From assembly GCA_963739715.1 (NCBI GenBank), contig CAVUBN010000014.1, positions 16,791 to 80,790 on the forward strand: a stretch of DNA of 64,000 bases, in the 5' to 3' direction. The notes under the pieces were generated by a model. That model was not told the DNA's origin and did no database searches. It saw only the letters and a list, made by a program, of their open reading frames with translations. The translations under genes were made by a program, and so were the position numbers. The DNA is from an uncultured Chloroflexia bacterium. GTDB taxonomy: Bacteria > Chloroflexota > Chloroflexia > Thermomicrobiales > Thermomicrobiaceae. Positions 37,782 through 60,802 of this stretch are shown in pieces. The stretch's first letter is position 1, and each line of letters begins with the position of its first letter.

Positions 37782-37872
37782 AGTCGGCATACCGATATGA
37801 ATTCAACTGCGAATAGGGACACCTTCGGCGCGATTCTTGCCAGCGCTTTCGTTCTACCGATTGGATGCCACA

Positions 37873-40292: not shown

Positions 40293-41273
40293 CTAATCCC
40301 TCACGCGTAGCGCCGGTAGGACGCGCTCTCCAAGGAGTCGCAGACCTTCATTCTCGTTAAGGCCATGTGGCGTCCCGAACTCGATCCGGTCGACACCCGC
40401 CTCGAACAGCTCGAGCGCCTGGTCAGCCACCTCCTCAGGCGTCCCGGCGAACGCGATGCGCCGCAACAGCTCGTCGGAAATGTAGCGGCCAGCGGTGTCG
40501 AAGTCGTATGCCGCAGCGGCTTGACGGATCCCACTCAGAATCTCAGGATCAATATCGAGCTTCGGCCCGAGCTCGGCGACAACCGGCAGATAGAGAGCAA
40601 CTTCACGACGTGCCAGCGCGCGGGCCCGTGCGCCATCTTCGTCCACCACCGTGACCGCTCCCACGACCAATCCGACCGTCACGTCCCCAGTCCGCGCGCG
40701 AAACCAGGCTGCTACGTCCGGATTAGCGGTACCACCCAGCTTGACTTCTTCCACAAACGGCAGACCCTCACGAAGCATACGCGGGCCCCAGCTACCGAGC
40801 AGAAACGGAATATCGGGTCGAATCGCCTCCCAGCGAAGCGCATCGCCACCGGATACGCTGAAGATCTCCCCCTTCAACGGTGACCTAACACGCTGAAGCA
40901 GGTGCCGCACGCAAGCCATTGCTTCTTTGACGGCCGCCACCGGGCTCTCCGGCTCAAGCCCGACAAAGTCGAGCCAGGCACCACGGGCGAAGCCGAGATA
41001 GGCGCGTCCCTGAGAGGCTTCATCGATCAAGGCGATATTGGCAGCGATGTTGACCGGGTGGCAGGTGAACGGATTGACCGCGGCCGGACCGATCCGCACC
41101 CGGCTCGTATGGCGCGCAATCTCCAACAATGGCAGCCAAGCTGGTTGATAGAGCATGTCATTGAAGACACTGACTCCGTCGAAGCCATACTGCTCGGCGG
41201 TCGCCGCCAGCGATCCATATGCCGTTAACGGCTTATTCGTCTGAAACGCAATGCTAACCGAACGTGATCTCAC
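40293..41273 (-). CDS. LLM-class (luciferase-like, probably F420-dependent) oxidoreductase
   Basis: GFDGVSVFNDMLYQPAWL, IGPAAVNPFTCHP, GTPEEVADQALELFEAGVDRIEFG. Confidence 0.85.
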   Translation of the reverse strand: MRSRSVSIAFQTNKPLTAYGSLAATAEQYGFDGVSVFNDMLYQPAWLPLLEIARHTSRVRIGPAAVNPFTCHPVNIAANIALIDEASQGRAYLGFARGAWLDFVGLEPESPVAAVKEAMACVRHLLQRVRSPLKGEIFSVSGGDALRWEAIRPDIPFLLGSWGPRMLREGLPFVEEVKLGGTANPDVAAWFRARTGDVTVGLVVGAVTVVDEDGARARALARREVALYLPVVAELGPKLDIDPEILSGIRQAAAAYDFDTAGRYISDELLRRIAFAGTPEEVADQALELFEAGVDRIEFGTPHGLNENEGLRLLGERVLPALRVRD

Positions 41274-41501
41274 CTAACAGCCTCCGTACGTCTCACCCTG
41301 GAAGCGATTCTCAACACCGGCCTGCCGTACATGCGCGACGAGAGTCCACACTAGAGGATGCAGCACAAAACTGCATTTCTGCGGCCTATTGTCTCTCACC
41401 GTTCGTGTCAGAATCAGGGTTTCTCCATAATTGGTCCTGGACCGATTTTGCAACGTGCCCCTTCACAATGCACGTGCTGCGAAGAATCGAGCACCCAAAG
41501 G

Positions 41502-42953: not shown

Positions 42954-43473
42954 CGCGATTCGATTCGACGACCTCGGCAGTCAAATCACCGATCCCAATG
43001 GGGATATTCATCGGCACGACGCGCAGATTCAGCTTACGGCCAATATCCCCCAGAAGTGGCTCACCCCGTGCGCCGAGACGATCGATCTTGTTGACGAAGA
43101 TCAGCATCGGGAGATTTGCCGCGCGGATGGCCCGCGCGAGGCGACGGGTCTGCGGCTGCACGCCCTCCACGGACGAGACGACCAGCACGATGCCATCGAG
43201 GACGCGCAGTGATCGCTCAACCTCGGCGACAAAGTCTCCATGGCCGGGAGTATCGATCAGATTGACTTTAAGGTGGTGAAGCTGAAAGGAGACCACCGCG
43301 GATTTAATAGTGATTCCACGGGATCGTTCCAGATCCATCGTGTCGGTTTGAGTCGTGCCTTTGTCGACACTCCCGACCGTCTTAATCACACCAGTTTCGA
43401 AGAGGATACGCTCAGTTAGGCTGGTTTTACCAGCGTCTACGTGCGCCAGGATTCCGATATTGACAATCGCCAT
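42910..43473 (-). CDS. Tet(M)/OtrA-type ribosomal protection GTPase, G domain (first ORF of the split gene)
   Basis: MAIVNIGILAHVDAGKTSLTERIL, SVDKGTTQTD, DTPGHGDF, NKIDR. Very close to the OtrA/TetM N-termini. Confidence 0.88.
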   Translation of the reverse strand: MAIVNIGILAHVDAGKTSLTERILFETGVIKTVGSVDKGTTQTDTMDLERSRGITIKSAVVSFQLHHLKVNLIDTPGHGDFVAEVERSLRVLDGIVLVVSSVEGVQPQTRRLARAIRAANLPMLIFVNKIDRLGARGEPLLGDIGRKLNLRVVPMNIPIGIGDLTAEVVESNRDEPELARLGDRSSR

Positions 43474-43641
43474 GCACCACTCTCTCGTTGAAGACCATTC
43501 CGATTGCTGGATTCTTCAACGATTGCCGCATGGGACTCTCCTTCTGTGTACGCAAGGACATCAACGTCAGCCGGCGGTATCACCATATGCGCCTCAACAC
43601 GACGCGCCGTAGACCAAGAGATCAGACCGTGCCGCATTCTA
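43474..43641 (-). promoter_or_regulatory. Promoter (-10 TAGAAT) and 5' leader with leader-peptide ORF and 9-bp-stem hairpin, copy 1
   Basis: -10 at 43636-43641, RBS GAAGGAGAG at 43536-43544, leader ATG 43531, hairpin CGTTGAAGA-N18-TCTTCAACG at 43486-43521. Duplicated at 47447-47614. Confidence 0.5.
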
Positions 43642-43701
43642 GCAGCGTGGCACGTGATGGCGCTACTATGGTTAGCGATCGCACATCATGTGACCGTAGT
43701 G

Positions 43702-45492
43702 TCAGACCAGCGAAACCGGATCATCCGCATCGTGCCACAGGGAACGCATCTCGGCGCAGGTTTCCAGCAAGAAGGCCAGCGTGCCCTCAGCTTCGACACG
43801 ACCTTCCTTCAACACGACGATATGGTCGGCACGGCGCAGCGCAACACGACGATGAGACACAGCCAGGCACGTCACGTCACCACTCGCCAGCAGGCGCTCC
43901 CACAAGACACGCTCCGTCTCGACATCCAGCGCACTCGAGAGGTCGTCAATCACCAGCAGTTCGGCGCGGCGCACCAACATGCGTGCTGCCGCAGTTCGCT
44001 GCACCTGACCACCGGAGAGCTTGACGCCGCGCGTGCCGACCGGAGTGTTCAATCCGTCCTCCAGTGTCTGCACGTCCTGCTCCAGAACAGCACCACGCAC
44101 GGCGGCGGTCAGCGCAACTGGGTCATCGGGTAACCCCAGGAGAATGTTCTCCTTGAGCGTTTCGCTGAAGAGACGTGGCACCTGCGCCGTATACGCCGCT
44201 CGCGGCGGCAGGAAAAACGAGGCCGGATCGTCTACGATCTGGCCATTCCAGCGAATCTCGCCTGCCTCCCGGGGCAGCAAACCCAAAAGAGCCCGCAAGA
44301 GTGTTGTTTTACCTGAGCCAACACGTCCCGTCACGACCGTCAGCGTTCCTCGCGGTAGCCGCAAATCCACCGCTTCGATACCGCTCCCCGACTGACGGTA
44401 GCGATAGGTCAAGCCGCGCGCTTCCACAACGACCAACGATTCACTGGCATCAAGTGCTGGTGATGGCGACAGGGTCGGTAGAGGGCCGCGTAGATATAGC
44501 GGAGTTGGCGCCAACAGGGCAGCCGGTGGCGCGTCTCCCAACAAGGCGAACATGCGTGAGAACGCGACGCCGGTCTGCTGGTAGTGAGCCAGGAAATTGC
44601 CAAGCCCTTTAGTGAACCCGGCAATGAAACCCAGGTAGGAGATAAACAGGACAAAGTCGCCCACGGTTAAGCTACCGCTGCGCAGGCTTCCGGCGGCCAA
44701 CAACATGATGAGACCGGTGCCTATGCTCACCGCGTTGGCCGTGATAGCGTCCAGAGCCTGCGTCATCAGGCGATCAGAGAGCATAGCGGCCCGGCGCTGC
44801 TCGTTCAGTCGCCGGAAATGGGCCACGATGCGCTCTTCGGCGCCGGCCGCCTGCACCGTTTGGACCGCACCCAGGATATCGCCGATGGCTCCGGTGACCT
44901 GACTTGTAGCCTGGCTGCTGGCGGCACGGTAACGACCAAGCGCGGTGCTGGCACGTCGTGCGATGACTACTACGACCACGAGGGGCAGGAAGACAACGAA
45001 CGTCATACGAGCGTTGATATGCAACAGCACCAGGAACGCCACGATGGCAAACAGACCCGTGCCGAGAATGTCGTCGGCCCAATCCAGGTTGTCCTCGGCC
45101 TCGTGCGCATCGTCGCGAAAACGGCTGATTGTCTCCCCAATGGAGAAGGGAAGCGCAGCGGCGCCCGGTCGATCCAGGACAGACCGCAGCAGGTTGCGGC
45201 GGAGCAGTCCACTCATGATGAACCGCATGACAATTTCGGCCAGGCCACCGGCAAGCCAGAGAGCCGCACTCACCACGGCGATTACGACCAGCATCACGAT
45301 TAGTCCGGTCGTGCCAACGCGAAGGTGCGCCTGACCGGTGAGCGTATCGAAGAAGGCTCGGGCGATCAGCCCCGGCAGCAGGGGCGACAGGTGAATTAGA
45401 CTCCACAATACCGCGTGGGTCAGGGAGATCCGGGGCGAGTAGCGGACCATTGCCAGGAGGTTGCGCCAGGTCGACCGCTCTCGTTCCTTCAT
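43702..45492 (-). CDS. ABC exporter, fused permease/ATPase (half-transporter B)
   Basis: 6 TM helices plus [31 protein letters not shown]. Confidence 0.9.
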
Positions 45493-47240
45493 GAGGAGAC
45501 CTCCTCAGCGGCAACCCTCAATAATCCCGCAAAGTGTGAGGTGGGGTCAGCCGCGAGGTGACCTCGCGGCCCGTGCTCCCGAACCTGCCCGTCCTCCAGA
45601 ACAAGAATGTCATCCGCAAAGGCAATCGTGGACAGCCGATGTGCGACAACGATGCCAGTTCGGCCCTCAAGCAGCCGTCCCAACGCGGTGTGCACCAGCC
45701 GCTCGGTCGCTGGATCAAGGCGCGAAGAAGCTTCATCTAGGATCACCAGGTCCGGATCATGGAGGAAAACACGCGCACAAGCCAGCACCTGAGCCTGCCC
45801 GGCGGAGAGCCCAATCCCTCCGGGACCTAGCATCGTGTCCAGCCCACCCGGTAGCTCTCGCAGCCAGCCGGCTAGGCCGAGCGTATCCAGCACAGCGCCG
45901 ACCCGGTCATCCGGTACGCTACCGTCGAAGAGGGTCAGGTTATCGCGCACGCTCGCGCTAAAGAGATGCACCTCCTGAGTGACCAGCCCGATGCGCGCAC
46001 GAACCGCCGCGATGCGGACGGTACGCAGATCGACTCCTCCCAGCCGCACCTCACCGGCTTTCGGATCGTAGAAGCGCGGGAGTAGCCGTGTGAGCGTTGT
46101 CTTCCCGCTACCGGTTCGGCCCACCACACCCAGCACCCGTCCCGGCTCCAGGCACACACTAACGTCGCGCAGCACCAGATTGCCGTTTGCGTAGCCAAAT
46201 GAGACACCGTCGAGTTCCACGGCCAGCGGACCGGGTGGCAACGAGACGCCGTGTCCATCGACGAGACACGGAGATGTGCTTAGTAGCTCCTCGATACGGC
46301 CTATGCTGGCGTCCGCCTGTTGAAGGTCCTGCGCTTCTCTGCGGATCTGCTCGGACGGCTGACGCAACACCGCCGTGTATTGGAAGACCAGATAGACGGT
46401 GCCGATCGTTAGCTGGCCATCCCTGTACAGCATGGCACTCAGGGCAAAGGCGACTGCCGTGCCAAGCGCAAACAGCCCTTGACTGGTGGCGACCATCGCG
46501 TAACCCCACATCTCAGCCTTGAGCGTCACGGCCAGCCACGACCGCATCACCTCGGCGCATCGGCGCAACACGAAGGCACCCGCTCCGCTCGATCGAACAT
46601 CCTCCATGCCGGCCAGATATTCACCCAGAAAGCCATAGAAATTGGCACTGGCCTGGCGTTCTTCAGCCCAGGATGGGGTGGCAACGACCCGGATTCGCAG
46701 CATAGCCGTCAAGCCCAACACCACAAAGGCAGTCAGGCCCAGACCAATCCGCCAATCCACGTGATAAAGGAGCCCGAGCACCGCAAGTATCAAGATTCCG
46801 TTGCCGAGCACATAGACCACAAACCGAGAGAAGAAGCGGGCCAGTGTGGCGACATCCCCATCGACCCGCTCGATCAGCTCACCCGGCGTATGGGCATTGT
46901 GAAACGATGCATCCAGTCGCAGCAGATGTGTGATCAGGTCGGCACGTAGCGTGTTGGTCGCCGTCCAGGCAACATTCTCGGCCAGGTACGTTTCGGCAAC
47001 GGCCATACCCTGTCCCGCCAGGGAAAGACCCATGGTCAGCAGCGCCAGGAAGATCAGACCGTGTAGAGCCCCGCCGGAGGTAGCCTGGTCGATGAAGCGG
47101 CTCGCCAGCAACGGCGTGACTACCTGAGCGCCGATGAGACCGCCGAGGACAGCGGCGAGAAGAATCATCCGCAACCAGTACGGCCGCAGGTAGTGGGCTA
47201 GCAAGCGCCAGTAACGATGCAGTTCCTGAAAAGGATTCAT
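45489..47240 (-). CDS. ABC exporter, fused permease/ATPase (half-transporter A)
   Basis: [35 protein letters not shown] overlap with the downstream partner. ATG 47240 overlaps the stop of the upstream relic ORF. Confidence 0.9.
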
Positions 47241-47446
47241 GGGAAGCACCTCGTCTCGTCACGCATACCGAGACGATCGATGGCGTTTACGAATCCGGAC
47301 ACCGTGAGATCTGAAACAACGAGCAGGTTAGACTCGGACTGGTTCGGTTGAAACCAGACCCTTACCGGTTCACTGAGGTTATGTTGTGTGAGACAGGTTC
47401 TACCAGCGTCTAGATGCGCTCGGGCTCCGATATTGACGATCGCCAT
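47237..47446 (-). pseudogene. Relic of the 5' end of a second ribosomal-protection GTPase gene (69 codons)
   Basis: MAIVNIGARAHLDAGRT... and FVNAIDRLGMRDE match MAIVNIGILAHVDAGKT and FVNKIDRLGARGE of the intact gene, with internal deletions. Confidence 0.7.
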
Positions 47447-47614
47447 GCATTACTCTCTCGTTGAAGACCATTCCGATTGCTGGGTTCTTCAACGTCTTCT
47501 GCATGGGATTCTCCTTGGTTATGGTGCCAATGTATCGAAACCGTACAACCTGCGTTGTGGGTCCGTCAAAAACGACGCGCTCTCGAGACGAAACATGAGA
47601 TCTTCTCGGATTCT
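47447..47614 (-). promoter_or_regulatory. Promoter (-10 TAGAAT) and 5' leader with leader-peptide ORF and hairpin, copy 2
   Basis: -10 at 47609-47614, RBS AAGGAG at 47511-47516, leader ATG 47504, hairpin at 47459-47494. The -10 and ATG sit at the same spacing as in copy 1. Confidence 0.5.
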
Positions 47615-47968
47615 AGCAGCATGGCACGCGTCCGCGCTACCGTGAGCGGCGACAGCGTATCCTGACAGAAGTGTTACGCGGGTGAAATCAGATCCTCAAC
47701 ATCCTGATGGCGTTCAGTGATGGTGTCACCACATACGAGTACTTTGAGTTCTGGCGTGCGGGAGAGTGCCTGGAGGACCGCGTCATCTCGACCCGGCTAC
47801 AGCTCTGAACCTGATCACATAGTGACAGGAAACGTTTTGAAGAAGCGCTTCATCCCCAGCCGAGGATGGAGCGCTCACCGGGCTGATCGACGACTGCGAC
47901 ATAATCGACGCCTCGTGAGCAAGGGGAGTTGCCACGGTCTCGCGACGCTCCGCTGTGGGTACCGTTCG

Positions 47969-48565
47969 TCACCAGATGTGGGGAATTAACCGGTAAGGCA
48001 CGCAGCCGCAGTAACCTTGGTACCCGTCAAGGTGGTTCACAAGATATCGTTCTTCATCCGAGAGGCGCCAGATAAGGATACCGAGCAGCGGAAGCACGAG
48101 GACAAGTCCCCACCACGACCCCAGTGCCGGTGGGAAACCGAGAAACACCAGCAGCAGCCCACTATACATCGGGTGACGCACGTAGGCATAGGGTCCGCTC
48201 GAAATCACGGGTTGTTGAGGCTCCACGGTTACGGTGGCCGCTGCAAAGGGATTGGCACGAAAGACCAGCCATAACAGTACCAGGCCACACGCGAACAACA
48301 GATCCCCGAACAGCACAACGGAGGGAGGCACAGAAGACCAGCCGTGATCGTGATCGATCGCCGAGACTGCGGCCAGGGTCAGAATATCGAACTGCAAGAA
48401 CACGACTATGACCTTTTGGATGGGTTCATGCTCAGACAGCGGTCCGCTGCGCAGTCGTCGCAGCAAGAGTGCCGGATGAGTCACGAGGTGGGTGAACAAG
48501 GGAAGGCCGCTCACCACTCCGACGACGAGGAGGACTCTGGCTTGCCACCACGATGACGGGCTCAT
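47969..48565 (-). CDS. ICMT/PEMT-family membrane methyltransferase
   Basis: GPYAYVRHPMYSG...RLSDEERYL motif and 4-5 TM helices. ATG 48565 behind AAGGAG. Confidence 0.8.
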   Translation of the reverse strand: MSPSSWWQARVLLVVGVVSGLPLFTHLVTHPALLLRRLRSGPLSEHEPIQKVIVVFLQFDILTLAAVSAIDHDHGWSSVPPSVVLFGDLLFACGLVLLWLVFRANPFAAATVTVEPQQPVISSGPYAYVRHPMYSGLLLVFLGFPPALGSWWGLVLVLPLLGILIWRLSDEERYLVNHLDGYQGYCGCVPYRLIPHIW

Positions 48566-48943
48566 CCTCCAATCTCCTTGTCGCAAAGGACGCGGAAATC
48601 CTGAAAGCGAAACCGGAGTTCGAGAGGCTCCCCTTCGTTGACGGGTTCAACGTGCTGATGTCTGGTTATTTGCACGATAGCCTACCTCCTGGACGATAGT
48701 ACACTATGGTACGGTCTTACCAACCGAACGGCAGCGACAGAATTGCGTACCCTATCACCGACTTTCTGCTTTTTGGGGTTCGTTGTGGGGTTGCTTGGCT
48801 GTTGCTGGATGGACTTGGCCCTGAACCAACAGGTTCCTGCCGCTTTCTTGTTCGACTGGGAACAGTTTGAGAAGGCAGCCGACTAACCTATCAGGTGGAC
48901 CAATCTGAGGATCCGGTCACCTGGCCCAAATCCCTCTTGTGGC

Positions 48944-49807
48944 TCAGACAGAATGGAGGTTACCGTCGATCTGTCGCTCCAGCCAGGCGAGTAGATCGCC
49001 GGTGACCGTCTCGTGCCCGACATCGTTGTGGACCTGATGATAGGCGCCGGGATATTCATGCAATGTCTTGTCATCCGTTCCGGCGTTCGCCATGAAGCGA
49101 CGGCTGCCGTCTGGCCGTGCGATCCGATCCGCATCACCGTGCTGAATCAGGAGCGGCACGCGCAGCTCGCCAGCATGCGACTGGACCCAGGCGACGGTCC
49201 GTTCGGTCTCCGCTGCCAGCCGCGCGGTACCACGATCGTGCACGAGTGGATCGGCCCGATAGGCGGCGACGAACTGTGGGTCACGGGAGATCGCAGTGAC
49301 GTCCAGCCCGGTACGTAGTGAGAACGAGGGCCACGCGCGCGACATGATCCGAGCGATGGTCATCAGCGCAGGTGAGACACCGATCTCGCCAATCGCCGGT
49401 CCGATCGCAACAACACCGCACAGATCTTCCGGATAACGCAGGGCGTAATCGAGCACGATGATGCCCCCGAGACTGTGACCGAGGAGGAAGATCGGCTGGC
49501 TCGACTGCTGTTCGGAGACGAAGTGTACGAAGGCATGCAGGTCCTGCCGATAATCATCCCATGATTTGATGAATCCCCGCTGCCCGGGAGAGCGGCCATG
49601 GCCACGTAGATCGAATCCATACGTCACGAACCCTGCTGGCGTGAGACGTTCCACTACATTATCGTAGGCCCCGCTATGCTCTCCAATGCCGTGGACGATG
49701 ATTGTTGCGGCGCGCTGTGGGACGCTTTCCGCAGCCCAGGACTGTTGATACAGGGTCAGTCCGCCAAACCCAGCAAAAGTCCCTTCCCGATGCGCGATCC
49801 CAGCCAT
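48944..49807 (-). CDS. Alpha/beta hydrolase (lysophospholipase/monoacylglycerol-lipase-like)
   Basis: HGIGEHSGAY, nucleophile elbow GHSLGG, C-terminal HQVHND. Confidence 0.85.
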   Translation of the reverse strand: MAGIAHREGTFAGFGGLTLYQQSWAAESVPQRAATIIVHGIGEHSGAYDNVVERLTPAGFVTYGFDLRGHGRSPGQRGFIKSWDDYRQDLHAFVHFVSEQQSSQPIFLLGHSLGGIIVLDYALRYPEDLCGVVAIGPAIGEIGVSPALMTIARIMSRAWPSFSLRTGLDVTAISRDPQFVAAYRADPLVHDRGTARLAAETERTVAWVQSHAGELRVPLLIQHGDADRIARPDGSRRFMANAGTDDKTLHEYPGAYHQVHNDVGHETVTGDLLAWLERQIDGNLHSV

Positions 49808-49864
49808 TTACCCCTCCGAAGGCCACTCCAGACGAGTCGCGACATGTTGCCCATCCATCGACAC

Positions 49865-50743
49865 TTACGTCTGCTGCAGCGTGGGGACGCGCTCGATCTC
49901 CTGACGCCGGTCGAGACGCCAGATCGTCATGGTGCTATAACAGCCGCCAATGAGAACCGCGAAGAGATAGATGACGTAAAGCCAGGTACCAGGCCGGTGC
50001 CATTCGACTATCGTATGGAAGCGCGCCAACGCCACGAGCTGGAGCAGGCCAACGATGAGATAGGGGACGCTTCCAACGCGGCCGCGGGTCCAGTCCTTCT
50101 CCTGAAAGAACCAGAACGAGGCGATCGCGATGGTGAGGAAGACGGTACCGGTCGTCTGCGCCGTCAAGGTGGTCAGCTGCCAGGGCCAGAGGGACAAGAG
50201 CCGATCCGAAACCAGGAACAGCGTCAGACCGACGACGAGCGAGACGGCTGCATTAGCACCCAGGAGCAGGCGGATCCAGAGGGGCACGGGCGCGATCCTG
50301 TCAGGATCCCCACCTGGCATACGGACTTGCAGGACAACAAACGCCAGGATCGCGAATGGGACGACCACATAGACAACGAGCCAGGCCCAGGCCGCGACAC
50401 GCGGGCCAACATCGTGACTGTGGAAGTGGAATGGGGAGAGATGCATGAATGTTGTGAGGGTGATGAACGGCACGAAGGTCAACACCGCTGCCATCGCAAC
50501 ACGAACGTTGGCCCAGGCCGACTCACGCACGGAAATCAGGAGTAATAGCGTACCGGCCCAGAACCCACCACCCAGAAAGGCAGCCGAGAGGGGATTTCCG
50601 ATCGTCCAGGCGAAATATCGATCGGTGCGATCGGCAAGCACGTAGAGTTGCACGCCCGCGATGCCAGCCAGGATGATCGACAGAGTAAAGACGGCACGTG
50701 TAATGGGAAGAACCGGTTTCACCGCAGGGACGTCGGTCGTCAT
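49865..50743 (-). CDS. Hypothetical polytopic membrane protein (about 8 TM)
   Basis: 292 aa, hydrophobic throughout. No recognised family. Confidence 0.6.
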   Translation of the reverse strand: MTTDVPAVKPVLPITRAVFTLSIILAGIAGVQLYVLADRTDRYFAWTIGNPLSAAFLGGGFWAGTLLLLISVRESAWANVRVAMAAVLTFVPFITLTTFMHLSPFHFHSHDVGPRVAAWAWLVVYVVVPFAILAFVVLQVRMPGGDPDRIAPVPLWIRLLLGANAAVSLVVGLTLFLVSDRLLSLWPWQLTTLTAQTTGTVFLTIAIASFWFFQEKDWTRGRVGSVPYLIVGLLQLVALARFHTIVEWHRPGTWLYVIYLFAVLIGGCYSTMTIWRLDRRQEIERVPTLQQT

Positions 50744-51124
50744 CGTTTCCTCGAATCACACGAGCTACCGCGCGAGACTTTGCAGGCTACGGATCGAACC
50801 CGAACTACTCGCACGATGAGCCGATAACCAAACACCCCCGGACCAGGTAATCCAAGATGAATACTGTGCATCTCTGAATCGGTTCGGCTAGTCTACTTCA
50901 CCCGGTTTCTCTTTGAAAAGATCACCGACAGTGCTCTTTGACACCGTGGCCTGGATTATTCATCAAGCTCGGGAGCGGCCCATCTGATCCGGAAGTTGCG
51001 TGACTCATCAAGCACTTCGTGACCTGGTAGACGGGGCAAATTGGGTCTCATGAATGGTCCGGGCCTCGTCGTAGCCGGCTATCTTCAGACCGATCACTGG
51101 CTCGGACAGACCCGTCACATGCAA

Positions 51125-51149
51125 ATGGGCCGTCATAGTGACGGCCCAT
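51125..51149 (-). terminator. Intrinsic terminator-like hairpin after the metal ATPase gene
   Basis: ATGGGCCGTCA-cta-TGACGGCCCAT (11-bp stem) followed by TTTGCAT on the minus strand, 33 nt after the stop. Confidence 0.5.
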
Positions 51150-51181
51150 ACTTCTATTCATGCTGAGTTATGTCGAACAGA

Positions 51182-53590
51182 TCAATCAGACGCGAATGCC
51201 GGAACCGACATTACCTTCTCGATGTGCGGCTGGGCGAAGCGCAACAGCCGAAGTCCATTCATGACGACGAGGATCGTGCCACCTTCGTGCGCGACAACGC
51301 CGACCGGAAGCGGAACCAACCCAACTACCGCACCCATCGAGAAGAAGACAATCACACTCAGCGCGAAGATCATGTTTTGGGTAATGATCTGGCGAGCCCG
51401 GCGACTGAGCTCAACCGCATAGGGCAGCTTGGTCAGATCGTCCGACATCAGCACGACGTCGGCCGTCTCGAGCGCCACGTCGGTCCCGGCTGCACCCATG
51501 GCAATACCGAGCGTCGCGGTCGCCAGCGCTGGGGCGTCATTGACACCATCACCGACCATCGCCACCTTCACGCCTGCCTGCTGTAGCTCACGAATGACGT
51601 CGAGCTTCTCTTCCGGCAGTAGACCTGCACGCCATTCATCGATGCCGACCTGGCGCGCGATGGCTCGCGCTGCCCGTTCGTTATCACCGGTTAGCAGAAT
51701 CGTCTTCTTGACGCCGATGCGGTGCAGTTCCTGGATGACTGCCGGAGCGACTGGCCGAATCACATCAGCCACGGCAATCACGCCGAGCGGTTGGTCGTCG
51801 GCCATCACGTACATCGTGGTCTCGCCATTTTCTCGGAAGGTGTTCGCTTGATCGCTGAGCTTCTCCGGCAGCGCAACCCCTTCAACCTCAAACAAAGCAT
51901 CATTGCCAATACGGATCATTCGACCCTGTACGTTGGCACGGACACCGCGCCCCGGCACCGACTGCAATCCGGAGATGTCACCCTCATCGATCAGGCTGCC
52001 GAATCCGTTGGACTCAGCATATTGGACGACCGCCGTGCCGAGGGGGTGTTCTGATAGTCGCTCAACCGCTGCCGCGATCGAGAGCATCTCACGCTCTTCG
52101 ACGCCTTCCCATGGAATGACGTCGGTCACGCGTGGGCGACCAAGCGTCAGCGTACCAGTCTTGTCGAAGGCGATTGCCGTAATGACACCAGCGTTTTCCA
52201 GATGAACGGCGCCTTTGAACAGGATGCCTTGCCGCGCGCCGTTCGCCAGGGCCGAGAGGATCGACGCCGGAGTCGAGATGACCAGCGAACAGGGTGACGC
52301 GACGACCAGCAGCGTCATTGCACGATAAAACCACGCGTGAAACTCTCCGGTTCCAAAGAGGAGCATCGGTATGGTGAAGGTCAGCGTCGAGATGCCCATC
52401 ACTCCGATGGCATATGCGCCTTCGAAGCGATCGGTAAAGCGCTGCGTTGCGGATTTCTGGCCACGTGCCTCTTCGACGATGCGAATGATCTTCGCCAGTG
52501 TGCTTTCGTGAGCGACACGTTCGACGCTCAGTCGCAGCAGTCCGTGACCGTTAATCGTTCCAGCGAAGACATTGTCGCCGGTCCTTTTGCCGACGGGAAT
52601 CGACTCACCGGTGATGGGCGACTGATCGACCGACGACTCACCACTGATGACCTGAGCATCAGCCGGGATCCGCTCGCTCGGCCGCACCATGACAACGTCA
52701 CCGATCACCAGTTCCTCTACTGGGATACGGCGCTCTTGACCGTCCCGAATGACGAGGGCGTCTTCCGGGCTCAACTCCATCAGCGAGCGGATAGCCCGAT
52801 GGGTACGGCCAAGCGCAAAATGCTCGAGCGAGTTACCGAGGGAAAAGAGGAAGAGTAGAATGCCACCTTCGACCCAGCCACCGATGGTTGCCGCGCCGAT
52901 CGCTGCTACGACCATCAGCAGGTCGACCTCGACACTACCCTGTCTCAGCGCCCGAATCGCGTCTCGCGTGGCGAACGTGCCGCCAGCGAGATAGGTCAGC
53001 ACGTAGAACACAATCTGGACATTATGTGGGATCAGTCCAAGCGCACCCAGGCCCCATCCGTTGATCAGGAAGAGTGCGGTAACCCCGGCCATGACCATGA
53101 GCTTGTTTTCTTCCCACCAACCCTCTTCTTCTTCCGATTCTCTCTTGGTGGGGGGCTCAGATTCGCTCGACCGCACGGAGACGCCCGAGTCGCCGATCTC
53201 TCTCGAGATTTCTGGAAGCTGTTCGCGCGTGCCTACATACTCCACGCTCAGACTTCTACTGGGAACATTGGCGCTAGCCCAGATGATGTCGTCCCGTCCC
53301 TTGAGGCGCCGTTCAATGGCGACACTACATGAGCGACAGGAAACACCGTCCATTCGTAGCGAGCAACGATGATAGCGTTCACCAAGCTGCGCACCGACGC
53401 GCGCGGCAACGCGCTCGACCGCCGCCAGCGACACGATATTTGGGTCATACCTCAGCTTGATAGCACTTTGTTCGGTATCGAATTCAATTGCCCCGATACC
53501 TTTGTAGCCCGTCAGTGTCTGGAGCAACAGCTCCGCACAATGCTCTTCATCGCCGTCTTCCAGCGTTATCGGGATTGTTCGTTCGCGCAT
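51182..53590 (-). CDS. Heavy-metal-translocating P1B-type ATPase (SPC-motif subtype)
   Basis: HMA-like MDGVSCRSC, TM motif ASPCSLVISTP, DKTGTLT, GDGVNDAPAL. Confidence 0.92.
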   Translation of the reverse strand: MRERTIPITLEDGDEEHCAELLLQTLTGYKGIGAIEFDTEQSAIKLRYDPNIVSLAAVERVAARVGAQLGERYHRCSLRMDGVSCRSCSVAIERRLKGRDDIIWASANVPSRSLSVEYVGTREQLPEISREIGDSGVSVRSSESEPPTKRESEEEEGWWEENKLMVMAGVTALFLINGWGLGALGLIPHNVQIVFYVLTYLAGGTFATRDAIRALRQGSVEVDLLMVVAAIGAATIGGWVEGGILLFLFSLGNSLEHFALGRTHRAIRSLMELSPEDALVIRDGQERRIPVEELVIGDVVMVRPSERIPADAQVISGESSVDQSPITGESIPVGKRTGDNVFAGTINGHGLLRLSVERVAHESTLAKIIRIVEEARGQKSATQRFTDRFEGAYAIGVMGISTLTFTIPMLLFGTGEFHAWFYRAMTLLVVASPCSLVISTPASILSALANGARQGILFKGAVHLENAGVITAIAFDKTGTLTLGRPRVTDVIPWEGVEEREMLSIAAAVERLSEHPLGTAVVQYAESNGFGSLIDEGDISGLQSVPGRGVRANVQGRMIRIGNDALFEVEGVALPEKLSDQANTFRENGETTMYVMADDQPLGVIAVADVIRPVAPAVIQELHRIGVKKTILLTGDNERAARAIARQVGIDEWRAGLLPEEKLDVIRELQQAGVKVAMVGDGVNDAPALATATLGIAMGAAGTDVALETADVVLMSDDLTKLPYAVELSRRARQIITQNMIFALSVIVFFSMGAVVGLVPLPVGVVAHEGGTILVVMNGLRLLRFAQPHIEKVMSVPAFASD

Positions 53591-53668
53591 GTTCCCTCAC
53601 CATGTATCCGCTACGGAGATGTTCTTAGTTTGAGAAATCCAATTGAGAATGAGTCCTATTTCCATGGC

Positions 53669-53697
53669 AGCATACTGAACGTGCGCCTGCCTGTCAA
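53669..53697 (-). promoter_or_regulatory. Sigma-70-like promoter candidate for the metal ATPase
   Basis: Minus strand TTGACA, 17-nt spacer, TATGCT, about 75 nt upstream of ATG 53590. Confidence 0.4.
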
Positions 53698-53826
53698 TGG
53701 AATTCCAAACATTAATGTTGACTAATTTTCTCGGAATACACGCGGTTTTCAGACCAGTGGGTCCATCTGGCGCGTCAGTCCCCGGTTGACCGATTATGTA
53801 GATCTATGTGTCGCCGCAGGACTCCT

Positions 53827-54318
53827 CTACCAGACACGCAGGCTTAGCCGTTGCGTGTCGTTTTCCGTCTCTCGGCTGTACTCGAAATCGCTCCCCGCCG
53901 CCGCGGATCCAAACACGTCAAGTACCCGATTCAGTTCCTCACGTGTCAGTCCAGCCGCTGCCAGAAGCTCCTCATCACGGAGGATCACCTCGAAGCGATG
54001 CTCCACTTCATCACGAATGCGCTGACCCGGCAGGCTCTTAACTACGATTTCAGCTCCTTCAGGATTTACCGCTCGCGAGATAACCTCGCCGCCGATAGAC
54101 TCGACATTAAGTAGCAATCCGAGAAGCGCGCTCTCGACTCCACCACCAGGAACACCCATTGATAGTCCAGCCAAGCGTTCGCTCCAGAACTGTGTCAAGC
54201 CATCCACCGAGCCCTCACGATCCCTGGTATAGGACATTGCCGCTCCCACTAGGGAAAGCAAGAGTAAGCGGCACCAGGCGAGCAATTCATTCGGGGAGTA
54301 AGGTCGTTGCTGCAGCAT
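53827..54318 (-). CDS. Hypothetical protein
   Basis: 163-aa ORF with no recognised family. The true start may be the internal MSYTRD. Confidence 0.45.
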   Translation of the reverse strand: MLQQRPYSPNELLAWCRLLLLSLVGAAMSYTRDREGSVDGLTQFWSERLAGLSMGVPGGGVESALLGLLLNVESIGGEVISRAVNPEGAEIVVKSLPGQRIRDEVEHRFEVILRDEELLAAAGLTREELNRVLDVFGSAAAGSDFEYSRETENDTQRLSLRVW

Positions 54319-54404
54319 CCTTCACATCCTTTCCATCGACTTTGAGACCGTATCGTGACCAGACGTCACGAAAAGACAGAACATCGGTTCCAATTCCCGT
54401 GGAA

Positions 54405-54590
54405 TGTGGATAAGGTCGTACCACCTGTGGATAACATGCCATACCTGTGGAAAGACTTGTGTACAGCGATCGTTTCCTTTTGGATAACCGCATCAGCAGC
54501 GTGGGCAGCCTGGGGACAGGCCGGCATGTGACAATTAAGGCAAGGGACAGTCAACTAAATTCCTGTGGATCTGTGGAGAAGTAACCCACA
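54405..54590. other. DnaA-box cluster (candidate oriC or DnaA-binding locus)
   Basis: TGTGGATAA at 54405 and 54426 (both perfect), TTTGGATAA 54479 and TGTGGAGAA 54572 (8/9), TGTGGAAAG 54446, TGTGGATCT 54564 and inverted TAACCCACA 54582 (7/9). Confidence 0.55.
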
Positions 54591-54725
54591 GCATAGGGAC
54601 GGCATTTTTCCTATCTACAAGCGGAGAGGAACGACTTTTCCCCGTCTGCACAGGCTCTACGACGACCGACGAATATTCTTTAAAGAATAACTCTCTTAAT
54701 ACACAGTACTTATAGTGGCACCACA

Positions 54726-55706
54726 TCAGTAATAGATTGTTCGGGTGTGGTGATACGGACGCACATTGCCTTGAAGGTCCTGACCGACTTGCCAGAGCAT
54801 CCAATCGAGCTCAAAAGAGGCGAGGGACATACCGAGTCGCTCCAGGGCTTGTCGCAGACTCTCGACAGCCCAGATCGTAGCTGCACGGATTTCAATCTCC
54901 AGGGGATCGCCAGCCGTGATTTCAATCTGCCCATTGAGAACACGTAGAAGTGTGTCGTCATATTCAAGGACGTTTAGCTGATTGAGAACCTGGGGAACCT
55001 TATAGTCGGCGAACGCGGTAAGTTGGTGAAGATCGTTGAAGGATCCCAATCCTCGGCCGCCGAAGGAGCCCGCGAGATCGCTGGCAAGAATCTGGGCGCG
55101 CTTGTAAAACCGGACCTCATGTCCCTGGTAGGTTGTGATGTCGTTGAAAGATGGGAACTCGGAGACGACCCGTTGGACGAGATTGATGGCGCTGCCGGCG
55201 GCCTGGCGAATGAGGTGGCTGAATTGTCCGTCGTGGTGGTTGAGAAGCACGCGGCCAACTTCACGTAGGTTCTCGACGCGTTGTGACAGTAGCGGGATGG
55301 TGTGCTCACCAGCAAGAATCTTTCCCAGAGTAGGCTCGTCGATGGAAGCCAGAAAGCCAGCGTCAATCAGTGGAAGGCCCTGCTGCATGGCCCGGGTAAG
55401 CGCAGCGGCGAGTGCCCAGTAACCGTTGTATCGTTGGCCGTCGTGACTGACGATCCAGCGAGGCTCACCCCAGAAGCAGAAATTGAGCGCATCCAGCACT
55501 AGGATGAAATTAGCAGTCTCGTTCGCGCCACCACTCCAGTGAAGTTGATTGTCCCAGCCAACGGGAGTGAAGTGGTTGCGGGCGATCTTCTGGGCCAGCA
55601 GTTCGACCGACTGGAAGTTAATACTGACTGATCGGGCCTGCTCGACAACCAGCAGCGTGCTGCTAAGAACGCCAAGTGGATCTGGTTTGTCTGGGAGCGT
55701 CAGCAT
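54726..55706 (-). CDS. Queuosine-salvage protein family (DUF2419/Qng1-like)
   Basis: FILVLDALNFCFWGEPRW, YNGYWALAAAL, RFYKRAQILASDL, LTAFADYKVPQVL. ATG 55706 behind GAGGA. Confidence 0.8.
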   Translation of the reverse strand: MLTLPDKPDPLGVLSSTLLVVEQARSVSINFQSVELLAQKIARNHFTPVGWDNQLHWSGGANETANFILVLDALNFCFWGEPRWIVSHDGQRYNGYWALAAALTRAMQQGLPLIDAGFLASIDEPTLGKILAGEHTIPLLSQRVENLREVGRVLLNHHDGQFSHLIRQAAGSAINLVQRVVSEFPSFNDITTYQGHEVRFYKRAQILASDLAGSFGGRGLGSFNDLHQLTAFADYKVPQVLNQLNVLEYDDTLLRVLNGQIEITAGDPLEIEIRAATIWAVESLRQALERLGMSLASFELDWMLWQVGQDLQGNVRPYHHTRTIYY

Positions 55707-55823
55707 GTGAGAGTCCTCGAGGTACGACGAGCACGAGACAGCGCAACGAGCATAGCAGATGCCAGATTTATGTCGGTGCGGGAGAGTGGCGGTCACTGAC
55801 CGGCAGCATCGAGGAGATAGCAG

Positions 55824-56559
55824 ATGGCAGACAACAGCAAGATCGAGCAGTTCATCCGGCGCATGCCGAAAACTGAACTGCATATTCACCTCGAGGGATC
55901 GGTACGGCCGCGGACGTTGCTGGAACTGGCTGAACGACACGGCATGGTCTTGCCTGCGGGACGCCGAGATTGAAACGAACTGGGCCGCCGCGCGCTACGC
56001 CGCTCAGGTTGCCGGCGATGGAATCGTAGGAATTGGGCTCGGTGGCATCGAAGCGGGCTTCCCACCGGAAGATTATGTTGATATGTTCGACTATGGTCGA
56101 GCTGCAGGATTACGCAGTACCCCGCATGCCGGCGAATCGGTCGGGCCGAAGAGCATCTGGGGAGCGATCCACTCACTCAAGGCGGAACGGATCGGCCACG
56201 GGATCCGCGCTATTGATGATCCCGTTCTGGTTGACGAACTCAGAGAACGCCAGATTACGCTCGAGGTCTGCCCCACAAGCAATGTTTGCACCGGTGTGGT
56301 GGGGTCCCTGGCTGAACATCCGATCCGTCAGCTGTTCGAGGCAGGAGTGCCGGTCACGGTAAATAGCGACGACCCTCCAATGTTCGGTACGACGTTCCTC
56401 GATGAACAGCTACTTCTTGTGTATGAGTTTGAATTCAGCATTGCCGATATCGAACATATCAATTTACAGGGAATCAATGCGTCCTTCTTGCCGGAAGGCG
56501 ACCGACGCCAGCTCGACGCTGAGTACGTGCGCCTGCGGCACGAGCTTCGGATAGATTAA
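55824..56559 (+). pseudogene. add: Adenosine deaminase gene with internal deletion and frame change
   Basis: N-terminal 49 codons (MPKTELHIHLEGSVRP) stop at 55973. The C-terminal two-thirds (HAGE, RIGHG, CPTSN, NSDDPPMF) are in another frame. About 100 codons are missing. Confidence 0.75.
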
Positions 56560-57788
56560 GACCTCGATTGATCAGGTTGGCTAGATTGCGAGTGAATTTG
56601 CGGAACCCGCGCTTCCGGTCGATCCATAGCGCGAAGTGCTGGGACGGCTACGATCATCGCTGGCATCAGAAGTGAAAGTGCGGCCACTGAAATGAGCGCA
56701 CTCGTGAGACTGAAGATTTGAATGAGGTAACCGGCGAGTATGACGCCGAGCGGAGTCGCCAGTCGGTGGAGGGCGAAAAGAGCGCCGAAGACGCGACCTC
56801 GCAGAAGAGCGGGCACACGCTCCTGGTAGACGGTGAAGGTGAGCGGGCCGATGATCCCAAAGGCTATGCCGTCTAGGACAAGGGTAATCGCACTGAGGGT
56901 AAGTCCAGGGGTCGCTGCCAGCGCTGCCAACGCCAGGAATGAAATGCTGAAAGCCGTAATGAGTGCTGGACGCCGTGGCCAGCGGTGCCCCACCAAGCCG
57001 AAAACGATTGTGCCCACCAGCGCACCACCACCGTCAGCCGCGATCAGAACGCCGAGCGCGATCGAGCTATCGAAGATGCGTTGTGCGAAGACCGGGAGCA
57101 GCACGGCCATCAGTGCCGCGCCTACTAAATTGACATAAGATGCGATGAGGGCAAGTGACCGGATGATTTGATCGGCTTGGATAAACTGTATGCCTTCGCG
57201 CAATGCTGCAATGTACCGTCTTTCGGGCTGTCCTATCTTGGGAACTGACGCTGGGGTGAGTGTGGCTACCACGATGGCCGAGAGTCCGAAGCTTACGGAA
57301 TCGACCCACAGGACATTACGTGCGGAAATCGTGGCAATCAGGAGTCCAGCGAGGAGCGGTCCGCCGAGTGAGGCGAAGTTCCTGATTCCCTCATCCAATG
57401 AGGTGGCGCGTTCGAGCCGCATCTGAGCCAGTTCAGCAAGATCGGGTAGGATGCCGCCCCGAGCCGTTGACCCTGGAGTATTGAACATAGCGACACAGAG
57501 AATGAGAAGCAGAAGCTCCCAGAAAGCGAGACCGAAGACGTAATCGAATAGCGGAATGAGCACAATGGAGATTCCGCTGGCACAGTCGGCGAGAACGCTC
57601 GAGCGGCGAAAGCCAATCCGGTCGACGAGTGCGCCGCCGAAAAATGAAGAGAGGATAATTCCGGCTGCCTCGATCGCCCCGGCCAGCCCAACACGAGCTG
57701 GACTGCCAGTTGTTTGCAGCACATACCAGGGCAACGCCAGGAGCGCCAACTGATTCCCGGTCAAGGAGACTATGTTGGCACTCATCAA
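56556..57788 (-). CDS. MFS transporter (MFS_3/EntS-like)
   Basis: 12 TM helices. LALPWYVLQTTGS, GGALVDRIGFRR. Confidence 0.85.
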   Translation of the reverse strand: MMSANIVSLTGNQLALLALPWYVLQTTGSPARVGLAGAIEAAGIILSSFFGGALVDRIGFRRSSVLADCASGISIVLIPLFDYVFGLAFWELLLLILCVAMFNTPGSTARGGILPDLAELAQMRLERATSLDEGIRNFASLGGPLLAGLLIATISARNVLWVDSVSFGLSAIVVATLTPASVPKIGQPERRYIAALREGIQFIQADQIIRSLALIASYVNLVGAALMAVLLPVFAQRIFDSSIALGVLIAADGGGALVGTIVFGLVGHRWPRRPALITAFSISFLALAALAATPGLTLSAITLVLDGIAFGIIGPLTFTVYQERVPALLRGRVFGALFALHRLATPLGVILAGYLIQIFSLTSALISVAALSLLMPAMIVAVPALRAMDRPEARVPQIHSQSSQPDQSRS

Positions 57789-58074: not shown

Positions 58075-60201
58075 ATGGCCGTCCGTCCACTGACAGAGGC
58101 AGTCCAGCAAGCAGAAGAAGCCATAAGCGGGGGAAATTATCAGCTTGCTGTGGAAACCTGCCGTCGTGTGCTGGGACAGTTCCCGGAATTCGCTACGGCG
58201 CACAGATTATTGGCAGAGGCATATCTTGAAGAGGGAGATGTCGCCGCAGCGGAGCGTGCATTCAATGAGACACTGCAGCGTGATCCCCAAAGTGCGGCTG
58301 CGTTTGCCGGATTGGCAACGATTGCTGATGGCCGGGGTGATAGCAACGGTGCGCTCGCCTATGCGCAAGCCGCCTGGGAGATCATGCCGCAACGGGAAGA
58401 TCTGCGAGATCGTGTCACCGTGCTGTCGGAGCGTCTGTTTGGCAAAGGTGGTCGCCTGCACCTAACTCGTGCGGCGCTGACCTCGCTGCATTTCCGCGCC
58501 GGTCGCTGGTCGCGCGCGGCAGCTGAAGCCGCCTCGGTTCTGGCCGAGCACCCAATGCGCGTGGACGTGCAACTCCGAATGGCCGAAGCGTTGTGGCGCC
58601 GCGGTAGTCTTCCTGCCGCAGCCAAAGCCTGCCGTGCTGTGCTGGACTCTGCTCCGTCAGCCGTGATGGCGTTACTGATGCTGGCGGATATAGAGCGGCG
58701 TCAGGGCAATCAGGAAACGGCAACGCAGCTGCTTGATCGTGCCCGCGCAATCGATCCGAATGGGGTTCACGCGGCAGACCTTGTCACCATTGGCGAGAAC
58801 GATCTGGCTGACTTCATTCTGCCTGCTAGAACCGCAGAGTTCGACGACTCGGTGGAACTCACGACCGAGGTCGAGCGTCCTCGTATCGCTCCCGCTCCCG
58901 ACTTTAGCTGGACACAACCGACTGAAGTGGAGAAACCGGCGGAAGTTGACCGTCTCGTGGCGGAAACTTCGGTAGCGCCGGAGACAGTTGAGGCGTCGGC
59001 AGCAACTGATGAGGGCGGATTCGATGTGAGCCTGCCAGATGACGCTGAGATAGAGGCAGCGCGACCAACGGGTGAGCGCCCACACGGCTATACGTCGATG
59101 TTGGAGTCACTGCACGATGAGGGCTTGAAGCCCTTCCGGCTTGAGGGTGACGAAAGTGATGACTCAGATGAAGGGTTCGCCCCGGCTGCGGAAGCTACCA
59201 GTGCTGAAGAAGTCTTTGGTCTCGTGAGTGATGAAGAAATCGATGCAGCACGCCCACCGGATGAGCGCCCACACGGTTACACATCACTTCTCAACTCGCT
59301 TGATGAAAGCGGACTCTCCCCGTTTGAAGTGGAAGGGGAATCCGGTTATCCGACCGAACCAGCTGTGCCGACCGAGTCGGTCGCTGAAGTTGAGATGCCG
59401 ACCGCAGCGCCGGAATCGGTCGATTACGGAACCGATCTAACCGCTGGGTGGGACGACATCGATGCTGAGATTGAGCGTGCAACGCCTCCGGACGAGGCCT
59501 CCCTAAAAGACTACACTGGGCAACTGCGTGATCTCGATGAAATCGGAATTCAACCCTTCTCGATGGAGACGGTCGACGACGAAGTAAACGCTGAAGCGGA
59601 ATTTGCGGATGAGATCGATCTCGATGCATCTTATGGAGATGATCTAGCCTTCCTTGATGCCGCACCTGTGGCCGAAGGCGATCGGCCGGATCGGAACATG
59701 TCAATGTCGGTTGACGTTGATCTGACCGACGGTTGGGCCAGTATCGATGAAGAAATCCAGAACGCGATTCCGACCGAAACTCCGCCGGGTTATACCGATG
59801 AACTGAACGAGCTCAACGAGAGTGGTGTCGAGCCATTCTTCGTTGAGGCGGACGAGTTGGACCTCGACGAAGAAGTTGAAACCGAGGAATTGGTGGCCGA
59901 ATCCGGTGAGGACAGAGTACCGGATGATCTCGCCGTTGGTATCGACCTCTGGACGTTCGAAAACGAGCCCGACACAGTTGCTTCTAACATCGATACCGAC
60001 GCCACCCAGGTCGAGACTGAGGCTGTCTCCGACGCGGACCTGTTCGATTTCGCCGATACCGAGAGTGGCGACGAATCCCCATTCGAAGTGGTTGAAGAGT
60101 CGCAGCCAGCTGAACCAGCAGCCACTGCACCGGTTGATGAGCCGATCGAAGTGGTTGAAGAGTCGCAGCCAACTGAACTAGCTGGCAACTGCACCGGTTG
60201 A
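58075..60201 (+). CDS. TPR-repeat protein with long acidic repeat-containing region (first ORF of a probably single gene)
   Basis: N-terminal TPR-like helices. Four modules with GYT..L..L.E.G..PF. Ends inside a 63-bp tandem repeat. Confidence 0.8.
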   Translation: MAVRPLTEAVQQAEEAISGGNYQLAVETCRRVLGQFPEFATAHRLLAEAYLEEGDVAAAERAFNETLQRDPQSAAAFAGLATIADGRGDSNGALAYAQAAWEIMPQREDLRDRVTVLSERLFGKGGRLHLTRAALTSLHFRAGRWSRAAAEAASVLAEHPMRVDVQLRMAEALWRRGSLPAAAKACRAVLDSAPSAVMALLMLADIERRQGNQETATQLLDRARAIDPNGVHAADLVTIGENDLADFILPARTAEFDDSVELTTEVERPRIAPAPDFSWTQPTEVEKPAEVDRLVAETSVAPETVEASAATDEGGFDVSLPDDAEIEAARPTGERPHGYTSMLESLHDEGLKPFRLEGDESDDSDEGFAPAAEATSAEEVFGLVSDEEIDAARPPDERPHGYTSLLNSLDESGLSPFEVEGESGYPTEPAVPTESVAEVEMPTAAPESVDYGTDLTAGWDDIDAEIERATPPDEASLKDYTGQLRDLDEIGIQPFSMETVDDEVNAEAEFADEIDLDASYGDDLAFLDAAPVAEGDRPDRNMSMSVDVDLTDGWASIDEEIQNAIPTETPPGYTDELNELNESGVEPFFVEADELDLDEEVETEELVAESGEDRVPDDLAVGIDLWTFENEPDTVASNIDTDATQVETEAVSDADLFDFADTESGDESPFEVVEESQPAEPAATAPVDEPIEVVEESQPTELAGNCTG

Positions 60202-60209
60202 TGAACTTG
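60083..60209 (+). repeat. Two-unit tandem direct repeat (63 + 64 bp) inside the TPR gene
   Basis: TCGAAGTGGTTGAAGAGTCGCAGCC... recurs at 60083 and 60146. Unit 2 has one extra base. Confidence 0.8.
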
Positions 60210-60802
60210 TGGATGAGCAGATCTTGACGAGCGAGCCGCAGGCGGCCTCGTTGGTCGAGACCGACCTGGTCGAGCCGGTCGTGGAAGATCTCCCGGTAGA
60301 ATCTGCTGTCTCGCCTGTGGCTGACAAATGGCCGGAAGAGGCCGTACGAGCGGCCATCGCGCATCTCGGAGTCGACGCGCTGCTCTTTGACCGCGTTCGC
60401 GGAGCCAAGGCGCAGCTGATGGAATCTGGCCGAATTCAGGGTGATCAGTTGCTTCCGGGTGTCGAACCACCAGGCCCATCGCTCGAGATGCTGGAGCAGA
60501 TGGTTCAGGAGAACGCTGAAGATCAGGATCTGCGGCGACAGTTCGCGGAAGCGCTCCTTGCAGTCGAGGCGTTTGAGCGTGCGTTCTCTGAATACCAATG
60601 GATGTTCCGGAAGCGACTGAGCTTCGACGATCAGGATCTGAGCAATCTGAACCAGGTCACTGATCGTGGCAGAGAGCACCAGGTGGCGGGTCACCGCCTT
60701 CTGGGAGCGATCTATCGGAGATCGGGAAATTTCGGCCTGTCGGCACACCATTACCAGTTATCGCTCTCGGGTTACCGTGGTGACGTGGGGAAAGAGGCCT
60801 AG
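60209..60802 (+). CDS. C-terminal continuation of the TPR/acidic protein (second ORF)
   Basis: In frame with unit 1 of the repeat once the extra base is removed. Acidic N-terminus, then helical TPR-like segment (LRRQFAEALLAVEAFERA). Confidence 0.6.
   Translation: MDEQILTSEPQAASLVETDLVEPVVEDLPVESAVSPVADKWPEEAVRAAIAHLGVDALLFDRVRGAKAQLMESGRIQGDQLLPGVEPPGPSLEMLEQMVQENAEDQDLRRQFAEALLAVEAFERAFSEYQWMFRKRLSFDDQDLSNLNQVTDRGREHQVAGHRLLGAIYRRSGNFGLSAHHYQLSLSGYRGDVGKEA

Follow-up and report, generated by a model that had tools for sequence, protein, structure and literature searches.

We conclude that positions 54356-54718 very probably constitute the chromosomal origin of replication (oriC) of this uncultured Thermomicrobiales (Chloroflexota) bacterium, and that it is an origin of an ordinary kind placed in an unusual, non-classical gene neighbourhood. 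Reading the DnaA-box cluster as oriC is well supported, being based on what was observed of its sequence elements, their conservation and the composition of the surrounding strands: the GC skew switches with the polarity of an origin at this very site, both in the window (the whole 64-kb stretch of DNA analysed here) and in relatives; the tract of lowest GC content in the window lies beside a box pair and a DnaA-trio; sequence, spacing and synteny are conserved throughout the order; and no other cluster of at least three boxes occurs in the 1.28 Mb of Chloroflexota DNA that was fetched. No paper describing a Thermomicrobiales origin was found in the literature searched, and the present analysis provides a sequence-level, comparatively supported oriC for one order of the Chloroflexota. 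A reliable origin is of value as an anchor for replication-rate (peak-to-trough) estimates from soil metagenomes, as an aid to orienting and closing long-read MAGs, and as a thermophile-related origin available for biochemical study, and two features described below, the dyad that relatives share and a trio array of reduced length, represent testable leads on variation of the initiation module outside the model phyla.

Architecture of the DnaA-box cluster and the candidate unwinding module

The proposed origin is located in an intergenic gap of 407 bp (54319-54725), the GC content of which is 48% as against 59% for the window. Its elements, together with the two flanking genes, are as follows.

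53827-54318, minus strand: hyp163, a lineage-restricted flanking gene transcribed away from the origin
54356-54718, no strand assigned: proposed oriC, comprising a DnaA-assembly region and an unwinding module, lying between the start of hyp163 (54318) and the stop of Qng1 (54726)
54356-54368, no strand assigned: dyad 1, TGACCAGACGTCA, motif TGMC-N5-GNCA, in the same alignment column in 25 of 25 sequences
54405-54413, minus strand: perfect DnaA box, TTATCCACA on the minus strand, at most one mismatch in 25 of 25 relatives
54426-54434, minus strand: perfect DnaA box, 21 bp from the 54405 box, at most two mismatches in 25 of 25 relatives
54446-54454, minus strand: DnaA box matching 7/9, CTTTCCACA on the minus strand, at most two mismatches in 22 of 25 relatives
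54479-54487, minus strand: DnaA box matching 8/9, TTATCCAAA on the minus strand, at most two mismatches in 12 of 25 relatives
54529-54542, no strand assigned: dyad 2, TGACAATTAAGGCA, motif TGMC-N6-GNCA, in the same alignment column in 18 of 25 sequences
54564-54580, minus strand: overlapping tandem DnaA boxes, TGTGGATCT (7/9) and TGTGGAGAA (8/9)
54582-54590, plus strand: DnaA box matching 7/9 in the opposite orientation, TAACCCACA, at most two mismatches in 21 of 25 relatives
54636-54652, plus strand: weak tandem DnaA boxes beside the unwinding element, TTTTCCCCG and GTCTGCACA, matching 6/9 each
54653-54656, plus strand: GC-rich 4-bp spacer, GGCT (GCCC, GCCT or CCCC in relatives)
54657-54670, plus strand: trio-like region, CTA CGA CGA CCG AC, its first triplet being 3'-GAT-5' on the bottom strand
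54671-54718, no strand assigned: AT-rich tract, candidate DNA-unwinding element, 27% GC (13/48)
54726-55940, minus strand: Qng1 (queuosine salvage, PF10343), its 3' end abutting the AT tract; synteny anchor in relatives

All seven of the boxes listed in the initial annotation were recovered where it had placed them, and the cluster is denser than expected by chance: the 64-kb window was subjected to 300 dinucleotide-preserving shuffles, none of which attained the density of the cluster. Four boxes with at most one mismatch fall within 200 bp (shuffle maximum three, n = 300), and nine with at most two mismatches fall within 300 bp (shuffle maximum six, n = 300). The perfect copies of TGTGGATAA lie at 54405 and 54426, 21 bp apart; these two strong boxes carry no more than one to two mismatches in all 25 aligned sequences, and their spacing is held at 20-22 bp. 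Of the weaker boxes, the one at 54479 is kept mainly in closer relatives (12/25), and the 8/9 box at 54572 retains at most two mismatches in 15 of 25. Box orientation switches at 54582-54590, and the 54564-54580 pair forms, with 54634-54654, an imperfect inverted repeat of 21 nt. The earlier feature list, although sound as regards its seven boxes, had overlooked the tandem pair at 54636-54652, the trio at 54657-54659, both dyads and the skew minimum at 54398. At the positions of this tandem pair the alignment of relatives gives TTATCCCCA plus nTnTCCACA; the proximal box has at most two mismatches in 16 of 22 relatives and three in the window.

The AT-rich tract conforms to its initial description, with 13 G or C residues in 48 positions and a perfect 16-bp palindrome, TATTCTTT/AAAGAATA, at 54674-54689. 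No 40-mer in the 64-kb window is poorer in GC than the one contained in this tract, and in 14 of 26 relatives the tract at the same position has the lowest GC content of its whole locus. Between the tract and the spacer lies a conserved DnaA-trio, 3'-GAT-5', at 54657-54659; as its reverse complement (TAG), the first triplet is found in 22 of 25 sequences, and the second triplet likewise in 10 of 25. Read by eye in the conserved frame, the window possesses one canonical trio (CTA, then CGA CGA), and most of the aligned relatives possess one or two.

At 54660-54670 and the equivalent positions elsewhere, conserved in-frame ACG/CGA triplets stand where canonical NAN trios would be expected, and ACG ACG follows the first trio in frame in many relatives.

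The two dyads share the motif TGMC-N5/6-GNCA, for which the background rate is 0.42 per kb. In dyad 1 none of the 25 sequences departs from T, G, C / G, C, A. The possibility that the dyad forms a hairpin was considered and rejected, as inspection of the aligned dyads by eye revealed no covariation at the variable positions; for the same reason the dyad looks like a protein-bound element, and dyad 1 is a candidate site for a second origin-binding factor, with a putative regulatory role.

Conservation of the locus and its strand composition

Relatives were collected by a scan for Qng1 in one genome per species, which yielded loci from the Thermomicrobiales and from other Chloroflexota, the best Qng1 match being 81% identical. 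Just downstream of Qng1, 26 fetched loci (L083 and 25 of the first 80) have a cluster of at least three boxes; among their hosts are Nitrolancea hollandica, Sphaerobacter, Thermomicrobium and many MAGs. In an alignment of 25 sequences the elements keep one and the same order: first comes the AT tract, then the trio with the GC spacer next to it, then the tandem boxes and the inverted box group (54564-54590), followed, in window coordinates, by dyad 2, the boxes at 54479 and 54446, the strong boxes at 54426 and 54405, and dyad 1. This order holds between genomes in which the flanking proteins are only 45-60% identical. The window itself is 99.8% identical to approximately 68.5-132.5 kb of ENA ERZ25039500 contig_7788 (569,808 bp), and a single base differs between the two in the origin region.

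When G-C is cumulated over the 64-kb window, its lowest value is reached at 54398, within the box cluster. Over the roughly 73 kb of this genome covered, skew is on average negative across the 54 kb to the left of the site and, following extension along the contig, positive across some 19 kb to the right. With L082 (20.7 kb) the right arm is lengthened by about 10 kb; in this stretch the minimum still lies in the same intergenic gap, and mean skew on the lengthened arm is 0.045 in the orientation of the window. This negative-to-positive switch is the polarity of an origin. As the initial annotation had noted for the genes to the left, all large ORFs of 40293-54318 are on the minus strand, their transcription leading away from the site. 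On the right arm, plus-strand skew is positive (0.076-0.127) in three minus-strand and in three plus-strand genes alike, so the direction of transcription alone does not explain the switch.

In relatives, where about 21 kb was covered per locus, skew is in most of them negative to the left and positive to the right of the cluster, the negative values being on the Qng1 side and the positive values on the other. Among the 17 relatives flanked by 5 kb or more on either side of the cluster, the local cumulative-skew minimum is no more than 420 bp from the cluster in 13, while in none of 24 control loci, which contain Qng1 and lack the cluster, is it as close as 1 kb to the corresponding point; in most of these controls skew keeps a single sign. 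The patterns of the relatives are not fully independent of one another, since many share the same flanking genes; among loci with flanks unlike those of the window, about five of nine still show a minimum no farther than 420 bp from the cluster, L035 and L039 being among those that do not.

The identity of the left-hand neighbour bears on a different interpretation of the cluster. The product of hyp163 (163 aa) has no Pfam or NCBIfam match and approximately 32 homologues, all of them hypothetical; in the public annotation the gene begins at Met28 (136 aa), and the 27 codons upstream are conserved as protein. An AlphaFold2 model built from 28 sequences is of low confidence (mean pLDDT 52.6), too uncertain to serve in a fold search. 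A heavy-metal P-type ATPase gene is next after hyp163 on the left flank. In model bacteria DnaA is also a transcription factor, approximately 90-115 bp separate the perfect boxes from the hyp163 start codon downstream of them, and the gene adjoins the cluster in many relatives; the cluster could on these grounds be a DnaA-regulated promoter or operator of hyp163 that has no origin function. However, hyp163 is absent in other relatives, and the cluster is kept without it, beside other genes, in L009, L010, L016, L017, L020, L027, L030, L035, L039, L046, L056 and L083, so that the gene is dispensable for keeping the cluster and a purely regulatory role is unlikely. Furthermore, no sigma-70-like promoter was found in 54100-54900, and regulation would leave unexplained both the skew switch and the module of AT tract and trio, which sits at the end far from hyp163. 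We consider a regulatory role of this exclusive kind to be extremely improbable, while regulation of hyp163 could coexist with the origin function that we favour.

Some further properties of the region were noted. In the window there was no Rfam match at gathering thresholds and no tRNA or tmRNA was found; neither a promoter nor a terminator was found in 54100-54900. An RNA element was rejected as a candidate, given the lack of an Rfam match and given that single-strand folding of 54630-54725 was no better than that of shuffles (z = -0.19). The TPR gene at 58075-60802 (plus strand) is split in the window by a stop at 60199-60201, yet is a single ORF of 908 aa in the 99.8%-identical ENA contig and in locus L001; conversely, the MFS gene at 56556-57788 (minus strand) is intact in the window and split into 131 and 288 aa in the ENA contig. 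These splits are probably long-read indel errors rather than biology. An EF-G-like ORF at 41502-42953 (minus strand), which adjoins two ABC transporter genes, has domains III, IV and C only; its GTPase part may be encoded in the overlapping upstream ORF at 42910-43473 (minus strand), which would indicate a frameshift. An eCIS core domain (PF13699) is present in the protein encoded at 37837-38781 (plus strand), the surroundings of which are otherwise metabolic.

Published origin calls and the identity of the replicon

The initial annotation had remarked on the absence of dnaA and dnaN from the vicinity, which was borne out: a DnaA or DnaN domain was found neither in window ORFs with a length of 300 aa or more nor in the genes that flank the site, and no signature motif of DnaA, DnaX, GyrB, ParB or DnaB was detected in the loci scanned. 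This agrees with the situation published for T. roseum, in which dnaA, dnaN, gyrA, gyrB, spo0J and gidA are dispersed and the origin was set from GC skew, beside the DNA polymerase III tau/gamma gene, dnaX (PMC2615216). Neither a Qng1 nor an ATPase orthologue from T. roseum DSM 5159 was among the best 120 matches, and Thermomicrobium sp. 4228-Ro (JAPFQM010000001.1, a contig of 2.05 Mb; L083) was employed as a stand-in. The conserved cluster is present in 4228-Ro, and dnaX lies approximately 12 kb from it (L083 1-317 versus 12250-12490), a proximity that is consistent with the T. roseum skew call at its likely resolution. Local skew in 4228-Ro is noisy, with a minimum 1.6 kb from the cluster and positive values more than 4 kb to the left.

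In a table based on DoriC 6.5, T. roseum is assigned a weak basal unwinding system (BUS) at 1,777,688-1,777,715, with a very low score of 4 (Pelliciari et al. 2021). The two published calls for T. roseum are thus in conflict, one placing the origin at bp 1 near dnaX on the basis of GC skew and the other at about 1.778 Mb. The latter position agrees with neither the position of dnaX nor any fetched locus; the 27-mer of the listed BUS is absent from all fetched loci, its alignment scores being at noise level.

These data also bear on the second half of the original proposal, which had offered the site as an origin or a DnaA-titration locus. Were the cluster a non-origin site of DnaA titration or reactivation resembling datA, DARS or DBC, the true oriC would have to be sought at another place, such as next to dnaA. 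Clusters of this type exist and are conserved in model bacteria (PMC3245932); in addition, dnaA and dnaN were not found near the site, as judged from window ORFs and flanking genes, and the DoriC-derived table puts the T. roseum oriC at another coordinate, although that entry is very weak. Titration loci, however, need neither an unwinding element nor a position at a skew switch, whereas this cluster lies within a few hundred bp of the skew minimum in the window and in most relatives and combines a box pair with a spacer, a trio and an AT tract whose GC content is the lowest of the window. The coincidence with the skew minimum and the layout of an unwinding element disfavour a titration locus, which we regard as very unlikely, while the origin half of the proposal gains from the skew, the AT tract and the conservation of the site.

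If the site is an origin, it might still belong to a secondary replicon such as a chromid or megaplasmid rather than to the main chromosome. T. roseum possesses a 0.92-Mb megaplasmid in addition to its chromosome (PMC2615216), and the contig to which the window belongs is incomplete, at only 570 kb. On the other hand, the locus in relatives is carried on contigs of 1.5-3.6 Mb, one of them labelled as chromosome 1, and on the 2.05-Mb contig in 4228-Ro, and no rep or par genes were found near the site. A plasmid origin was examined as a candidate and rejected: there was no DNA match in PLSDB, and the sole Qng1 protein match was weak and to an unrelated Azospira plasmid. On account of the size and labelling of the host contigs and the lack of plasmid matches, we judge the prospect of a secondary replicon to be exceedingly slim. 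With host contigs reaching 3.3-3.6 Mb and one labelled 'chromosome: 1', the evidence points to a location of the oriC on the main chromosome.

Proposed initiation mechanism and comparison with known origins

Given the arrangement of a BUS-like box pair, a spacer, a trio and an AT tract, we infer from sequence alone how DnaA binding, unwinding and origin firing might proceed at 54356-54718. DnaA would occupy the strong boxes at 54405 and 54426, 21 bp apart, as anchors, and would then fill the weaker boxes of the same orientation at 54446, 54479 and 54564-54580, as well as the oppositely oriented boxes at 54582-54590 and 54636-54652. The pair at 54636-54652, located 4 bp from the 3'-GAT-5' trio, would steer the DnaA oligomer onto one strand of 54657-54718; the trio and the AT-rich tract would melt, the helicase would be loaded, and forks would leave in both directions. 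It is tempting to suggest, though we hold it to be unlikely, that Thermomicrobiales origins employ a modified module in which one or two GAT trios are followed by ACG/CGA triplets and in which the dyads bind a lineage-specific regulator, possibly the hyp163 product itself.

Among the features by which an oriC is recognised, a density of boxes beyond chance, a flanking AT tract and conservation in relatives are all present at this locus; adjacency to dnaA/dnaN, which is frequent rather than defining, is absent. With regard to the BUS of B. subtilis, which comprises boxes 6 and 7, a GC spacer, DnaA-trios and an AT tract (PMC6669920, PMC8287927), both the order and the polarity of the elements are shared, as are a tandem pair in the TTATCCACA orientation, a GC spacer of 4 bp, a box-nearest 3'-GAT-5' and an AT tract. 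In relatives the better box is about 13 bp from the first trio, within the published BUS peak of 10-13 bp. Unlike the B. subtilis BUS, the window has a single canonical trio and its relatives have one or two, and partly conserved, GC-containing CGA/ACG triplets come next; the proximal boxes of the window have three mismatches each; and the origin is not beside dnaA/dnaN. The BUS rule of Pelliciari et al. (2021) specifies a box with at most two mismatches at 0-16 bp from the first trio, an optional tandem box with at most four mismatches, and at least three consecutive 3'-NAN-5' DnaA-trios. The window, having a single canonical trio, falls short of the last of these numbers, and it does possess the short GC spacer and the AT-rich region beyond the trios that are expected of a BUS.

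The oriC of E. coli is compact, extending over a few hundred bp between gidA/mnmG and mioC, with a DUE at its edge and both strong and weaker boxes. The proposed origin shares with it this compactness, the DUE at the edge, the combination of strong and weak boxes and the presence of two oppositely oriented box arrays. The E. coli oriC is, moreover, separated from dnaA (PMC8287927), a trait that the proposed origin also shows within the window. The proposed origin differs from that of E. coli in being flanked by Qng1 and hyp163 and in having TGMC-N5/6-GNCA dyads in two copies; no GATC/SeqA, IHF or Fis sites were identified in it.

Sites for a further regulator besides DnaA, such as CtrA, Spo0A, MtrA, AdpA or HP1021, are present in Caulobacter crescentus Cori and in other origins as well. 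The Thermomicrobiales locus resembles origins of this type in possessing, besides its DnaA boxes, a conserved dyad in two copies that would suit a lineage-specific regulator, and its motif is one that we take to differ from the sites of those five proteins. As regards datA, DARS and the DnaA-box clusters of B. subtilis, all of them non-origin DnaA sites (PMC3245932), the similarity lies in clusters of consensus boxes in an intergenic position away from dnaA. Unlike those loci, the cluster characterised here coincides with the minimum of local skew, and a candidate unwinding module adjoins it.
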